Origin: a virus
Taxonomy: Duplodnaviria > Caudoviricetes
Virus record (IMG/VR): IMGVR_UViG_3300050821_001527
Location: 96,001 to 160,000 of that record
Strand: one strand, 5' to 3'
DNA length: 64,000 nucleotides
Each line of letters opens with the position of its first letter. The first letter of the stretch is position 1. Under the pieces are notes generated by a model. That model was not told the origin of the DNA. It saw only the letters and a program-made list of their open reading frames with translations, and made no database searches. Shown one piece after another: positions 8,071 through 29,563 of this stretch. The position numbers and the translations under genes are program-made.

Positions 8071-8519
8071 TAAGGATAGACCATTTTTTTGAAATAAAAT
8101 TCACGAACGCACGGGACTGCCCCTGTATGATGTTTCTTAGCAAATATAGGCAGACATCCCCTTACCGGAGTAATGGTTACACTACTCTAGTAAGGAGATT
8201 CTGTATGCCGTTTCTTGAGGGCTTGAAATATTTAATGTGGTAAGCCACTCCACGCAGCATTGAAACTTTGTTAGTCAGCAGCTACCGGAAGTCCGGGGAT
8301 GCGAAAGGTCTTAAAACGCATTTACGCTGCCGTCCCCGTGCTTACGCACAACGGCGGGTGAGCCTCTACGATTTCTCGTAGCCTTTTTATTTTCTCGTCA
8401 AATCGAGAGCCTAGCCCTTGTTGCGTCTGTTTGGCTTCAGCGCGTCCGCGATGGAGCAACGTGGGAAAACCTTACTGTTTGTTCTCAGCAGGCTGAAAAT
8501 GGATACAACCATTTGTTCT

Positions 8520-8548
8520 ATACTACGGAAAGTTTACAAAGGAGTCAA
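8520..8548 (-). promoter_or_regulatory. Sigma70-type promoter of the minus-strand operon
   Basis: TTGACT-17-TAGTAT on minus strand. Confidence 0.6.
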
Positions 8549-8598
8549 GGATAAAATTCCGCTTGACAAAACTTCTGGTTATCAATTACACTTGAAAG

Positions 8599-8679
8599 GT
8601 GAACATTGGCCCTTTAATATTCTTCGGTTTGATTTTCTTGTATGCGGCTATTTTCTTCGCTAATATAAGGAAGACATGA
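8599..8679 (+). CDS. 26-aa membrane micropeptide
   Basis: GTG start 6 nt after TTGACA-18-TACACT; hydrophobic; ATGA overlap with next gene. Confidence 0.45.
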   Translation: MNIGPLIFFGLIFLYAAIFFANIRKT

Positions 8680-9586: not shown

Positions 9587-12166
9587 ATGGATAATAAATT
9601 TGGTTACGAAGAATCTCTGGAAGCCTCGATTTCTTACTTTAACGGCGATGAACTGGCCGCGAAAGTCTTTCTCGACAAATACGCCCTGAAAAACGAGCAG
9701 TCCGAAATCTTGGAGAAGTCGCCGTATATGATGCACAGCAGACTGGCGAAGGAGTTTGCCCGCATCGAGAAAAACAAATTCAAGGTCGCCCTCACCGAAG
9801 CTGAAATATTTTCGTTCTTCGACAGGTTCAAATACATCGTCCCTCAAGGGTCGCCGATGTTCGGCATCGGTAACAATTTCCAAATCATTTCGCTGTCCAA
9901 CTGCTACGTTGTGGAAACGCCGAGTGACAGCATCGGCGGCATTCTAAAGACCGACCAGCAGCTTGCTCAGATTTCCAAGCGCAGGGGCGGCAATGGAGCA
10001 TCACTCAATTCACTTCGCCCTTCCGGTGCGCCGACCAAAAACTCCTCCCGTTCTTCAACCGGAGTTCCGTCTTTCGCAGAAAGATACTCCAACACGATTC
10101 GTGAGATTGGACAGTCTGGTCGTCGTGGAGCCTTGATGCTTACCTTGTCAGTTCATCACCCGGACTGCTGCAAGATTGACGACGCCCAATGGGAATCTCC
10201 TAAGAAAATCGTTCTCAAGGGTGACGCCGAAAAACAGGAGCGCGACATTGTTACCGACTCCCGATTCTACGACGAGAACAACGTTGACTTTTGCTCAATG
10301 AAGTTAAACAGAAAGAAAGTCACGGGAGCAAATATCTCCATCCAGCTTTCGGACGAGTTTCTCAACGCCGTTAAGAAGGGCACAAAATACGAGCAGCGTT
10401 TCCCTCTCGACTATAAGGAGAAGGGTGTCAAGCCGATGGTATCGAAGATGGTTGACGCCCGCAAGGTGTGGCAAAAAATCATTCATTGCGCGTGGCAGTC
10501 TGCCGAACCCGGATTGCTTTTTTGGGATTTGATTAGACAGTTCAACGCGGTTGACTGCTATGCAAAACATGGGTTCGCCACGGAGTCCACAAACCCTTGT
10601 TCCGAATTGCCGCTCTGCATACTCGACTCTTGCAGGCTGATGGTGCAGAACCTATACTCTTACGTTCTCCATCCGTTTTCCAAAGACGCAAGGTTTGACT
10701 ACGACTTGTTCTACGCCCACGCGAAAATCTCGCAGAGGCTCATGGATGATTTGATTGACCTTGAACTCGAAAAGATTTATCAGATTATCGCCAAAATCAA
10801 GTCAGACCCGGAACCCGAAGAAATCAAGAGAGAAGAACTGACGCTGTGGGAAAAGATAGCTGAGAAATGTTCCTCTGGTCGAAGGACTGGGCTTGGCGTT
10901 ACTGGTGAAGGCGATGCCATTGCCGCCGTAGGTCTGAAATACGGTTCCGACGAAAGCATTAAGTTCGTGGAAAAAATCCACAAGACTCAGAAACTTGCCT
11001 CATTCGATTCGTCCTGTGAAATGGCCCAAGAGATTGGGGCTTTCCCTGTTTGGGATTGGGAATTGGAAAAGGATTCGGCGTTTCTTCTTCAAATCAAAAA
11101 GGAGGATGAAGCTCTTTATGAGCGCATCAAGAAATACGGACGCCGTAATATTGCGAACCTGACGATTGCCCCTGCGGGAACAGTTAGCATTATGACGCAG
11201 ACTACTTCCGGCGTAGAGCCGTTGTTCGACATTAAGCCATACGAACGCCGCAAGAAAATCAACCCCAACGACAGTTCCTCTAGGGTGGACTTCACCGATA
11301 CTAACGGAGACAAGTGGCAGAAGTTCGAGGTTAAACATCCCAAGCTCCAAATATGGATGGATGTAACCGGGGAGAAGGACTGGAAGAAGTCCCCTTGGTA
11401 TGGTTCCTGCGCTCCTGATATTGACTGGAAGCAGCGCGTCAAACTGCAAGCCGCCGCGCAGAGGCACATTGACCACGCCATTAGCAGCACCATCAATCTC
11501 CCGGCAGAAGTCACCGAAGAAAAGGTAGCCGAGATTTATCTTGAGGCTTGGGAGAGTGGGTGCAAGGGGATTACGGTTTATCGTGAAGGATGCCGTAGTG
11601 GAGTCCTTATCCGCAAGGACAAGGAAGAAGGCCCGAAGATTACCAAGACCGTAGCTCCTAAAAGGCCAAAGAGTCTGGAAGGAAAGCTTCACTTCTTCAA
11701 TTTCCGTGGCGACAAGTATTTCGTTGCCGTGGGGTTATTGGGTGGAACACCGTATGAAATCTTCACCGGATTCAACAGCGAGAAAAAGCGCGACTTTATC
11801 CCGAAAGACTGTAATACTGGGCAAATCAAAAAGCACCGCAGAGGGCATTATGTATTCGAGTCCGCAACGGATGGCGAGACGTATGCTCTTAACAATGGTC
11901 ACTCCGACGACAACGCCGACGCTTTGACCCGCATGATTTCTTGCAGTCTTCGCCACGGCAGCGACATTGCCTTCGTCATTCACCAGCTTGAAAAAACTTC
12001 CGGCGACTTGTCCTCGTTCTCGAAGTGCTTGGCTAGAACGCTAAAGTGCTACGTCGAAAACGGTAAAGAGGTTTCCGGCGAAGAATGTTCGGAATGCGGA
12101 AGCAAGCTCCACAGGGAGAACGGCTGCATTATTTGCAAGAACTGCGGAAACTCAAAATGTGGATAA
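9587..12166 (+). CDS. nrdJ: Class II (adenosylcobalamin-dependent) ribonucleotide reductase with C-terminal TSCPD and Zn-ribbon
   Basis: SNCYV, RRGA, TNPCSE catalytic motif, IAPAGT, TSGVEP, CKGITVYR, C-terminal CxxC pairs. Confidence 0.95.
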   Translation: MDNKFGYEESLEASISYFNGDELAAKVFLDKYALKNEQSEILEKSPYMMHSRLAKEFARIEKNKFKVALTEAEIFSFFDRFKYIVPQGSPMFGIGNNFQIISLSNCYVVETPSDSIGGILKTDQQLAQISKRRGGNGASLNSLRPSGAPTKNSSRSSTGVPSFAERYSNTIREIGQSGRRGALMLTLSVHHPDCCKIDDAQWESPKKIVLKGDAEKQERDIVTDSRFYDENNVDFCSMKLNRKKVTGANISIQLSDEFLNAVKKGTKYEQRFPLDYKEKGVKPMVSKMVDARKVWQKIIHCAWQSAEPGLLFWDLIRQFNAVDCYAKHGFATESTNPCSELPLCILDSCRLMVQNLYSYVLHPFSKDARFDYDLFYAHAKISQRLMDDLIDLELEKIYQIIAKIKSDPEPEEIKREELTLWEKIAEKCSSGRRTGLGVTGEGDAIAAVGLKYGSDESIKFVEKIHKTQKLASFDSSCEMAQEIGAFPVWDWELEKDSAFLLQIKKEDEALYERIKKYGRRNIANLTIAPAGTVSIMTQTTSGVEPLFDIKPYERRKKINPNDSSSRVDFTDTNGDKWQKFEVKHPKLQIWMDVTGEKDWKKSPWYGSCAPDIDWKQRVKLQAAAQRHIDHAISSTINLPAEVTEEKVAEIYLEAWESGCKGITVYREGCRSGVLIRKDKEEGPKITKTVAPKRPKSLEGKLHFFNFRGDKYFVAVGLLGGTPYEIFTGFNSEKKRDFIPKDCNTGQIKKHRRGHYVFESATDGETYALNNGHSDDNADALTRMISCSLRHGSDIAFVIHQLEKTSGDLSSFSKCLARTLKCYVENGKEVSGEECSECGSKLHRENGCIICKNCGNSKCG

Positions 12167-12168
12167 TT

Positions 12169-12372
12169 ATGGACGAGCAACTTACATTTCCCTTCGATAA
12201 AAAGGTATTCGCCACGCAATTCCTTAGTGGGCTTGATATAAAATGCAATTTATCGAAAGCACTTGGCAAGGCTTACTGCCCCAAATGCGTCATCAGGCAG
12301 GTAGGAACCTGTAGTTGCCGTTTCTGCATGATTTGCCCAAAGTGCGGCGGGCACATGGAAGAAATTACTTGA
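12169..12372 (+). CDS. Small Cys-rich (Zn-finger) protein
   Basis: CPKC, CSCRFC, CPKC. Confidence 0.55.
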   Translation: MDEQLTFPFDKKVFATQFLSGLDIKCNLSKALGKAYCPKCVIRQVGTCSCRFCMICPKCGGHMEEIT

Positions 12373-12401
12373 CTTAAACCGCAATCCGTGTAGAATAGTA
12401 T

Positions 12402-12617: not shown

Positions 12618-13001
12618 GGGGACGTAATGGTTTCGACATTTATTGTTGAAAGCCGAACGCAAGCACGGGATGATTGTTGGCCCGTTAAAAATTCAATCAA
12701 AACATAAATGCTAACAAAGTAGCACTTAGAAATGCAGTTGACTGCGGAGTAGTTCGCGGTTTTGCAGCATTTGCGATGGCTTAATGCCGTCCCGTCCACC
12801 ACTCCGATTCTCGCTACGAGTGAATGGGCGTAAAAACAGCGGGAAAAAACCCTAGAGCCGGTTCGAGGGTAACGGAACCGGATATTGATGGTGAGTTTTG
12901 CTGCCAGTGTAGCCAATCAAGAATATCAAAGGCTGATAAGCTTGTAGTGTTTTTCTTGCAAACGTAAGTGGACGCGGGTTCAACTCCCGCCGTCTCCACC
13001 A
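12618..13001 (+). ncRNA. ssrA: tmRNA; tag ANKVALRNAVDCGVVRGFAAFAMA* (12710-12784)
   Basis: GGGGACG..TGGTTTCGAC 5' end, T-arm GCGGG-TTCAACT-CCCGC, G3:U70, ACCA end, 384 nt, Ala-Asn-initiated tag. Confidence 0.95.
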
Positions 13002-13006
13002 TTTTC

Positions 13007-13122
13007 GGGGCTACTGGTCAGACTTGATGAACGAAAGCTAATACCGACAAACCGGATTGCTAGAGAATAGCATTTACGCAGGCCGTCATTGAGGCACGGT
13101 TTAACTCCGTGTAGCTCCACCA
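13007..13122 (+). ncRNA. Mini-tmRNA-like RNA (116 nt) with short frame ANTDKPDC*
   Basis: GGGGCTA/TAGCTCC acceptor with G3:U70 and ACCA, stemless D loop CTGGTCAGAC, P2-like helix, T-arm CACGG-TTTAACT-CCGTG. Confidence 0.75.
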
Positions 13123-13123
13123 A

Positions 13124-13504
13124 TTACGCCTGCTGGTTTACTTCGACATTGACTCCCAATGCCTTCAAACGGCTGACGAGAGAATCAACTTCCGCGCTTG
13201 CGGCATCAGCGGCAGTCTTAACGGCTTGTTGGGCGGTTGCTTGAGCAGTCTGGATGGCATCCTTGGCCACCTGAACCGGCTGATACTTTTCCTGAAACTT
13301 GGTCAACTGGTGACTGGCAATGCCGATTAACAGCAGCTTCCAATTCGCCTGAGTCAAATCAGCCCCGCTGGATTCGATAGCCGCCTTCACTTGAGGGAAC
13401 AGCGCGGTCAAGGTCGTGAGCAAAGCAATAACACGGCCCATTGAAATGTTGCCTTCCCCGTCCCCAAGGCCAAGGGTGTGCAGAAAATTCTGGAGTGCTT
13501 TCAT
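13124..13504 (-). CDS. Holin-like membrane protein
   Basis: Two hydrophobic helices, ISMGRVIAL motif, GTGTAATA promoter 6 nt upstream. Confidence 0.5.
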   Translation of the reverse strand: MKALQNFLHTLGLGDGEGNISMGRVIALLTTLTALFPQVKAAIESSGADLTQANWKLLLIGIASHQLTKFQEKYQPVQVAKDAIQTAQATAQQAVKTAADAASAEVDSLVSRLKALGVNVEVNQQA

Positions 13505-29415: not shown

Positions 29416-29563
29416 GGGTATATGTTGTAATGGCAGCAAAAAGGGCGGGAGAGTCGAGGGAATAGCAGACCAACTATAGCTCTGTAAGCCTAGTAGCTCG
29501 ATTTGAAAACCTGAATACTCGTCTATACGAGTGGCCTCGGTTCGATTCCGGGTATATCCACCA
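29416..29563 (+). tRNA. tRNA with ~52-nt hairpin insert in the anticodon loop, long V arm, G3:U70
   Basis: GGGTATA/TATATCC-ACCA, D arm with GG, ACTCGT/ACGAGT V arm, TTCGATT T-loop; identity unresolved. Confidence 0.65.

Follow-up and report, generated by a model that had tools for sequence, protein, structure and literature searches.

What is the RNA that a large soil phage encodes immediately behind its transfer-messenger RNA (tmRNA) gene, and could it act in ribosome rescue? The phage is represented by a 202,882-bp IMG/VR virus record (IMGVR_UViG_3300050821_001527; 91% complete by CheckV estimate), in which ARAGORN and Rfam recognize a long tRNA array; the window analysed here is the 64,000-nt stretch formed by bases 96001–160000 of that record. 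A full-length phage tmRNA gene lies on the + strand at 12618–13001 of the window, with its resume codon GCT at 12710 and the encoded tag ANKVALRNAVDCGVVRGFAAFAMA*. It is called by ARAGORN and matches the Rfam tmRNA model RF00023 over the whole model (positions 1–374, 140.5 bits, E = 5.5e-55). Only five nucleotides (TTTTC, 13002–13006) separate the CCA end of this tmRNA from the first G of a second element on the same strand, 116 nt long (13007–13122), which a sequence-only reading had taken for a mini-tmRNA bearing a non-degron tag. We found that this element, hereafter the mini RNA, is a tmRNA-derived RNA without pseudoknots.

The mini RNA has the layout of a tRNA-like domain (TLD) closed around a reduced interior. 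Its acceptor stem pairs GGGGCTA (13007–13013), which holds G3 of the G3:U70 pair, with TAGCTCC (13112–13118, holding U70) at 7/7 positions, and is followed by the discriminator A73 and an encoded CCA (ACCA, 13119–13122). The stemless D-loop analogue CTGGTCAGA(C) (13014–13022) contains the GG and GAC junction motif, as judged by comparison with six full-length tmRNAs of the phage's clade. Next comes helix P2, in which CTTGATGA-A-CG (13023–13033, bulged A at 13031) pairs with CGTCATTGAG (13084–13093) to give 10 bp (8 + 2, two of them G·U); the 3' strand is followed by a GCAC junction motif and by the T arm CACGG-TTTAACT-CCGTG (13095–13111). An interior of about 50 nt (13034–13083) stands in place of pseudoknot PK1, the tag region and PK2–PK4. 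When only the acceptor and T stem were constrained, RNAfold recovered P2 unaided at −31.8 kcal/mol (unconstrained minimum free energy, −33.3 kcal/mol, with a z-score of only −1.77). This TLD-compatible fold consists of the 7-bp P1, P2, a 3-bp extension of P2 in which GCU 13037–13039 can pair with 13081–13083, and two hairpins, at 13044–13055 (3 bp) and at 13058–13072 (5 bp, TGCTA-GAGAA-TAGCA); it includes no pseudoknot and no anticodon arm.

The anatomy proposed in the sequence-only reading (acceptor, G3:U70, ACCA, D loop, P2, T arm, hairpin and 5-nt spacing) was confirmed base for base, as was its description of a tmRNA-like TLD with alanine identity marks that lacks the pseudoknot ring and stands in tandem with a full tmRNA. 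Its claim that every TLD hallmark is present went too far: the features are all in place, but the D-loop analogue has 7 nt before GAC, 3 fewer than the 10 nt of each of the six clade tmRNAs, the T loop has U at position 56 where the clade tmRNAs have C, and no Rfam model matched the whole element at E ≤ 10, even with a 124-base query (12950–13200 and 13003–13126 were searched). Only the T arm and the 3' acceptor strand scored in Rfam, at 9.0 and 5.3 bits and with permuted-tmRNA models, and ARAGORN made no call at the mini RNA.

Could such an element arise by chance? We scanned the window with a descriptor that required a 7-bp acceptor, a 5-bp T stem directly adjoining it around a heptamer of T-loop type, and a following NCCA. 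On the + strand it matched the tRNAs and the mini RNA only, on the − strand it matched nothing, and shuffled sequence gave a mean of 0.035 matches per 64 kb (200 shuffles). The element is therefore real, and chance is excluded. An assembly artefact was excluded as well, by a contig from an independent sample (L033) that is identical over 613 bases around the mini RNA, by a 167.8-kb contig from a further sample with the same 522-nt gene-free gap, and by DNA and RNA contigs from public runs, which show zero differences from the phage sequence at the locus. Across the whole genome, G3:U70 frames were found at the tmRNA, the mini RNA, tRNA-Ala, a 239-nt match and a 148-nt RNA in the tRNA array, with no others. 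We take the 239-nt frame, which reuses the 3' acceptor strand of tRNA-Ala itself, for chance. The 148-nt RNA is a third alanine-type non-tRNA in this phage: it lies between two array tRNAs (29416–29563) and has a G3:U70 acceptor, a D arm, a T arm, a Ser-like variable hairpin and an insert of about 60–95 nt at the anticodon-arm site.

Where does the mini RNA come from? Its acceptor is identical to that of the tmRNA of a related phage lineage, L035, and its 3' end matches this tmRNA at 21/25 positions (p = 0.0, 300 shuffles). In the T stem, three of the five pairs differ from L035, the closest TLD, and all three changes are compensatory. The junction motifs GAC...GCAC are common to the mini RNA, the clade tmRNAs and a TLD-only RNA of mycobacteriophage DS6A, with GCAC in the same form as in L035. 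While the TLD of the mini RNA is thus of the L035 type, that of the neighbouring full tmRNA is of the L191 type: its last ~30 nt (12970–13001) are almost identical to L191 5948–5979, in a phage whose class II ribonucleotide reductase (RNR) protein is only 68% identical. This pattern suggests that tmRNA modules may have been exchanged or replaced within the phage clade. Because the TLD types differ and the T-stem changes are compensatory, the mini RNA is a diverged tmRNA paralogue and not a recent copy of its neighbour, although these changes may already have arisen before the interior was lost.

The interior itself has left a fainter record. Searching with nhmmer and a clade profile recovered only the 3' TLD of the mini RNA, and spliced alignment of the interior gave marginal matches to the L027 tmRNA (p = 0.04) and to the phage's own tmRNA (p = 0.02), both uncorrected. 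The L027 match is a colinear chain of short matches in the resume region, the 3' side of PK3 and the closing TTGCTA. In the full tmRNA the resume codon lies in a hairpin TGCTA-N6-TAGCA (12709–12724), the mini RNA has TGCTA-N5-TAGCA (13058–13072), and the tmRNAs of the relatives lack this hairpin. The likeness could stem from common descent, from gene conversion or from a ligand site that both RNAs share; this is unproven, as are by-eye likenesses of the mini interior to the tag end and hairpin of the phage's own tmRNA.

To place the locus among its relatives, we identified phages through RNR proteins 68–82% identical and compared the neighbourhoods of nine RNR relatives. In the window, the RNR gene (9587–12166) is followed by two small open reading frames (ORFs) and then by the tmRNA gene. 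A tmRNA directly follows the RNR gene in five lineages (L026, L027, L028/L029, L191 and L035), and the mini RNA is present in none of them; L035 carries an unrelated 116-nt Ala-type RNA (8542–8657) 9 nt after its tmRNA (8147–8532). No match to the mini RNA was found by blastn among 50,697 GenBank phages, no relative by a protein-anchored search of IMG/VR and no homologue with three DNA patterns in IMG/VR; a metagenome scan and a genome scan returned no orthologue of the mini RNA among the matches listed. A pattern restricted to the acceptor gave 23 IMG/VR matches, which are chance occurrences in coding DNA except for one unrelated 108-nt TLD-like RNA (L204). This RNA, on the − strand of a 78-kb viral contig, combines the identical acceptor (GGGGCTA/TAGCTCC) and a T arm with an interior that is unrelated and forms a 6-bp hairpin.

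Is the mini RNA transcribed? A scan for promoter-like and terminator-like sites was negative both in the spacer and immediately behind the two genes, and at 5 nt the spacer has no room for a separate promoter. Upstream of the tmRNA, a sigma-70-like site lies at 12369–12396. In relatives, GTGTAATATAAG occurs a few bases before G1 of the tmRNA gene (L027 7740–7766, L028 5287–5304, L035 8130–8147), in a region that holds a GTGTAAT motif, a candidate phage promoter; here TGTAAT directly abuts G1, and the tmRNA–mini pair is therefore probably transcribed from further upstream, at the 12369–12396 site. A 5-nt spacer, an encoded CCA and no separate promoter or terminator are also the style of the phage's tRNA array.

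RNA from the region was sought in contigs of three soil metatranscriptomes from different studies (X3–X5); such contigs carry neither strand nor ends. Coverage of the phage was patchy in all three, with the tmRNA, some genes and the tRNA array covered, whereas the adjacent RNR gene had zero depth in X3 and almost zero in X4. Thus, the signal is RNA and not contaminating DNA. One X4 contig (12433–12637) runs from the upstream ORF into the 5' end of the tmRNA, and the mini RNA is covered in two of the three metatranscriptomes, by an X3 contig (12714–13458) and an X4 contig (13018–13168), being absent from X5. RNAs of this size are usually lost from such RNA libraries. Transcription is established for the region, not for a discrete 116-nt RNA. 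Beyond the mini RNA, a convergent ORF of 126 codons runs on the − strand from 13504 to 13124. Its predicted product combines two hydrophobic segments with a coiled tail rich in Ala and Gln, and its few homologues, of 77–86 aa, match the N-terminal 73 residues only; the product resembles a small phage membrane protein with no connection to translation. A role as a release-factor-like partner was rejected, because the match to Pfam baeRF_family2 (17.4 bits, cut-off 26.9) is probably spurious.

Does the interior encode a tag? The proposed frame exists and translates as ANTDKPDC* (13037–13063). Two other frames, ARE* and PTNRIARE*, are equally open, and all three end at TAGs of the 13058–13072 hairpin. 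Being equally open and without comparative support, three frames in about 50 nt are no evidence of coding, and no orthologue was found that could show conservation of the frame. Several further features argue against decoding: (i) TAAAT precedes GCT in each of the six clade tmRNAs, giving U-5/A-4, whereas the GCU of the mini RNA is preceded by C-5/G-4, and in Escherichia coli the −4 base, A86, is nearly invariant, A86C and A86U abolishing function and A86G barely surviving (PMC2481249); (ii) C-5 and G-4 lie inside P2, and in the TLD-compatible fold the GCU is also paired, only 3 nt from P2; (iii) the choice of frame is ambiguous, since selecting U-A at −5/−4 gives PTNRIARE* and aligning the TGCTA hairpin with the tmRNA resume hairpin gives ARE*; (iv) ANTDKPDC ends in D-C, whereas the clade tags end in V-A, T-A or M-A, a hydrophobic degron, and the likeness of A-N-T-x-K to the start of the relatives' tags is not statistically secured; and (v) the mini RNA, at 116 nt, is far shorter than the Carsonella tmRNA, which still encodes a tag and, at 202 nt, is very short itself (PMC4131195). 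On structural grounds, the P2-closed loop of about 50 nt would also be unlikely to pass through the mRNA channel as the pseudoknot ring does. On the other side, AAAGCTAAT in the mini RNA resembles the clade resume region AAATGCTAAC, tmRNA can stay active when its pseudoknots are experimentally replaced (PMC2481249), and natural tags of 2 aa exist (PMC11915505). Sequence context, pairing, ambiguity and length together speak against the tag frame that the sequence-only reading had put forward.

Other large phages repeatedly carry Ala-type RNAs of 100–125 nt, framed by a TLD, immediately behind a tmRNA or tRNA-Ala gene, and we observed three kinds of related element. The first is a nested, "double-TLD" RNA found in L035 (8542–8657), L013 (− strand, 122 nt), L222 (113 nt), L224 (110 nt) and L340 (127 nt), in which an outer G3:U70 acceptor (7/7), T arm and ACCA enclose a second T arm and an inner acceptor whose 3' strand, extended by an ACCA-like tail and 3 nt, folds back to pair with a GGG... 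5' strand (6–7/7). Since all five differ in sequence, the pairings covary. These RNAs follow a tmRNA (L035), a tRNA-Ala (L013) or another CCA-ended tRNA-like gene on phage contigs of 51–345 kb, L340 being a prokaryotic genome contig, and we found no description of the architecture in the literature. The second, a family of 109–112 nt (L066, − strand, 109 nt; L071 4573–4682; L075 1361–1472; L097 2753–2863; L171 9859–9967), has a tmRNA-type TLD, P2 and apparently PK1 only, with no tag region; ARAGORN is silent on it, acceptor and P2 covary, three of the five copies (L066, L071, L171) lie between tRNA-Leu and tRNA-Thr in a tRNA array, and only L171 is a classed viral contig. The third is a conserved 109-nt Ala-type TLD-framed RNA (L220 8293–8401, L226 7997–8105, L230 9690–9798, L234 and L237), located 7–9 nt after a tRNA-like gene (tRNA-Ala(TGC)-like in 4/5) on viral contigs of 54–303 kb. 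It is a putative further mini-tmRNA-like family behind an Ala-type gene.

What, then, might the mini RNA do? Tentatively, and at slightly less than an even chance, we read it as a competitor or modulator of tmRNA–SmpB of the DS6A type, needing host alanyl-tRNA synthetase (AlaRS) and host SmpB. Gene searches of the phage genome found no SmpB, AlaRS or integrase gene, so that the tmRNA and the mini RNA must both use host factors. We infer a path that would begin with co-transcription of the mini RNA and the full tmRNA from a promoter upstream of 12618. Release would follow as for an array tRNA, with RNase P cutting at G13007 and the 3' end being trimmed back to the encoded CCA. Minihelices with G3:U70 are AlaRS substrates, and host AlaRS would charge the mini RNA via G3:U70 and A73, whereupon host SmpB, with EF-Tu, would bind its TLD. 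Lacking a credible mRNA-like domain, the mini RNA would be incapable of full trans-translation; it may instead compete with or modulate the host tmRNA–SmpB system, either by titrating SmpB or by taking the stalled peptide on Ala without a degradation tag. A decoy-type reading is supported by published work: a TLD-only molecule like that of DS6A is reported to inhibit tmRNA strongly in E. coli, and titration of SmpB may be the cause (PMC4131195, PMC11915505). Of the two functions suggested earlier, the SmpB decoy thus has an experimental precedent, but an RNA that adds a tag is not backed by the frame evidence. Also in favour of the competitor reading are the anatomy far beyond chance, the TLD similarity to clade tmRNAs with its compensatory T-stem changes, the array-like spacing, the RNA coverage, the identity between samples and the recurrence of TLD-framed Ala-type RNAs in other large phages.

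Several observations weigh against the competitor reading. Four of the lineages (L026, L027, L028/L029 and L191) have the tmRNA with nothing tRNA-like behind it; no orthologue was found, and hence there is no evidence of purifying selection on the mini RNA. It is also hard to see why a phage would encode a decoy that would compete with the very tmRNA transcribed along with it, and the shorter D loop and U56 could signal decay. As to the RNA contigs, reads antisense to the mini RNA could come from the mRNA of the convergent 126-aa gene; the X3 and X4 contigs extend beyond the mini 3' end into that gene, one of them by 46 nt, and X4 depth is 2 over the mini RNA vs 23.5 over the tmRNA.

Alternatively, and we consider this main rival somewhat unlikely, the mini RNA could be a relic: a decayed second or ancestral resident tmRNA whose interior was deleted after another tmRNA took over, and which has no function and owes its transcription solely to its place behind the active gene. 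Two TLD types at one locus, L035-type in the mini RNA and L191-type in the full tmRNA, suggest module replacement, the colinear interior matches to the L027 tmRNA fit internal deletions, and lineage specificity, the shortened D loop, the change of C56 to U, the low depth in X4 and the absence from X5 all point the same way. Yet all 12 acceptor and T-stem pairs (12/12), P2, A73 and CCA are intact, so that every deletion would have had to hit the interior. In addition, phage genomes purge useless DNA, other phages have positional analogues with very different interiors (L035 among them), and the interior homology is marginal (p 0.02–0.04, uncorrected; nhmmer finds only the 3' TLD).

An unlikely explanation is that the mini RNA serves as a tRNA-like frame outside ribosome rescue, either as a signal for processing or punctuation, in which case RNase P would set the tmRNA 3' end by cutting at G13007, or as a stable Ala-type scaffold that presents the interior hairpins as cargo to some partner. 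The 5-nt spacing typical of the phage's tRNA array and the lack of a terminator after the tmRNA are consistent with this idea, as are the 148-nt Ala-type RNA in the same array and the 100–125-nt Ala-type frames with unrelated interiors, some of them nested and permuted, behind tmRNA or tRNA-Ala in other large phages. However, tmRNA maturation in the relatives manages without an element of this kind; neither a partner nor a target came to light, a duplex between the mini interior and the tmRNA was not significant (p = 0.89), and the neighbouring 126-aa gene appears to encode a membrane protein with no link to translation.

It is distinctly unlikely, in our estimate, that the mini RNA is a working partner of the phage tmRNA, performing Ala-charged, SmpB-dependent rescue with no degron tag or with a non-degron tag of 3–8 residues, and that the 100–125-nt Ala-type frames form an undescribed class of rescue-acting phage RNA; were this so, phage proteins made from non-stop messages would escape proteolysis. 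Finally, given the frame evidence above, we regard as very improbable a minimal trans-translation RNA that enters stalled ribosomes as Ala-mini RNA, resumes on ANTDKPDC, ARE or PTNRIARE, ends at a TAG and leaves a non-degron tag.

The pair matters under more than one of these readings. Tag-less mini-tmRNAs are almost absent from the literature, where we found one phage case and the organellar forms, and standard annotation tools miss them, as Rfam and ARAGORN miss this one. Here a phage naturally combines a complete tmRNA with a pared-down copy of it, apparently in a single transcription unit, which raises the question of whether the small RNA competes with or assists the large tmRNA and the host rescue system. 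If functional, the pair would offer a simple system to separate the tRNA-like from the mRNA-like steps of trans-translation and would help to ask why large phages carry tmRNA genes. If the mini RNA is a relic, it would document how, in one phage lineage, a tmRNA module came to be replaced by another.

How does the mini RNA compare with known systems? It shares the acceptor GGGGCUA/UAGCUCC, A73 and CCA with ordinary bacterial tRNA-Ala genes (for example in L077 and in E. coli). Unlike tRNA-Ala, it has no D stem and no anticodon arm, and neither ARAGORN nor Rfam (RF00005) calls a tRNA; a tRNA with an intron or insert was rejected for want of an anticodon arm. With standard tmRNA (RF00023; the phage's own at 12618–13001, L035 at 8147–8532) it shares a homologous TLD, the junction motifs and P2, but it lacks PK1–PK4, a U-5/A-4 tag frame and a hydrophobic C-terminal tag, has one third of the length, and gives no RF00023 match at E ≤ 10 (gathering score, 47 bits). 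Nor does the locus form a two-piece permuted tmRNA (RF04321), since the acceptor strands pair within each gene (CGTCTCC/GGGGACG in the tmRNA, GGGGCTA/TAGCTCC in the mini RNA); the tmRNA–mini junction scores 19.9 bits against a threshold of 47 bits, and true permuted phage tmRNAs look different. An attP-like copy of the tmRNA 3' end was likewise rejected, because both acceptor strands are present and the phage has no integrase. The 116-nt RNA of L035, of which we found no description in the literature, has the same position, length, G3:U70 outer acceptor, T arm and ACCA as the mini RNA. Its interior is a permuted tRNA-like module (T arm and acceptor stem closed by ACCA and 3 nt) with no similarity to the mini interior.

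Closer in architecture are tmRNAs that have lost their coding sequence (CDS). CDS-less tmRNAs occur in mitochondria and plastids, and tags of two residues are also found (PMC11915505). The organellar forms, from jakobid and oomycete mitochondria (RF02544) and Mallomonadaceae plastids (~65 nt), are TLD only and are thought to act with SmpB without adding a tag (PMC11915505); they are much shorter than the mini RNA and are the sole tmRNA of their genome, and RF02544 gives no match here. Among phages, Hudson, Lau and Williams list the tmRNA of mycobacteriophage DS6A as "TLD only" (PMC4131195; tmRNA Website tmID 11587; JN698994.1 28478–28557, which is L195 179–258), as does the tmRNA database paper of 2025 (PMC11915505). 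This 80-nt RNA has the same architecture and, together with the organellar CDS-less forms, overturns the earlier statement that the mini RNA has no described equivalent. Both are phage-encoded and have a 7-bp G3:U70 acceptor, a stemless D loop with GG and GAC, GCAC before the T arm and a short P2 closing a small interior, with no pseudoknots and no accepted tag frame. Beyond this shared frame there is no detectable sequence homology. In the DS6A RNA, P2 has 5 bp and closes about 20 nt of interior, and the 3' end is ACTA with CCA unencoded, whereas the 116-nt mini RNA has a 10-bp P2, an interior of about 50 nt, an encoded CCA, a shorter D loop and U56. The DS6A RNA also stands alone in a 60-kb actinophage, and the mini RNA lies 5 nt behind a full tmRNA in a 203-kb phage. 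Thus, a phage TLD-only RNA was already known; its occurrence in tandem with a full-length phage tmRNA, with which it is apparently co-transcribed, is new, and so is the larger interior of about 50 nt.

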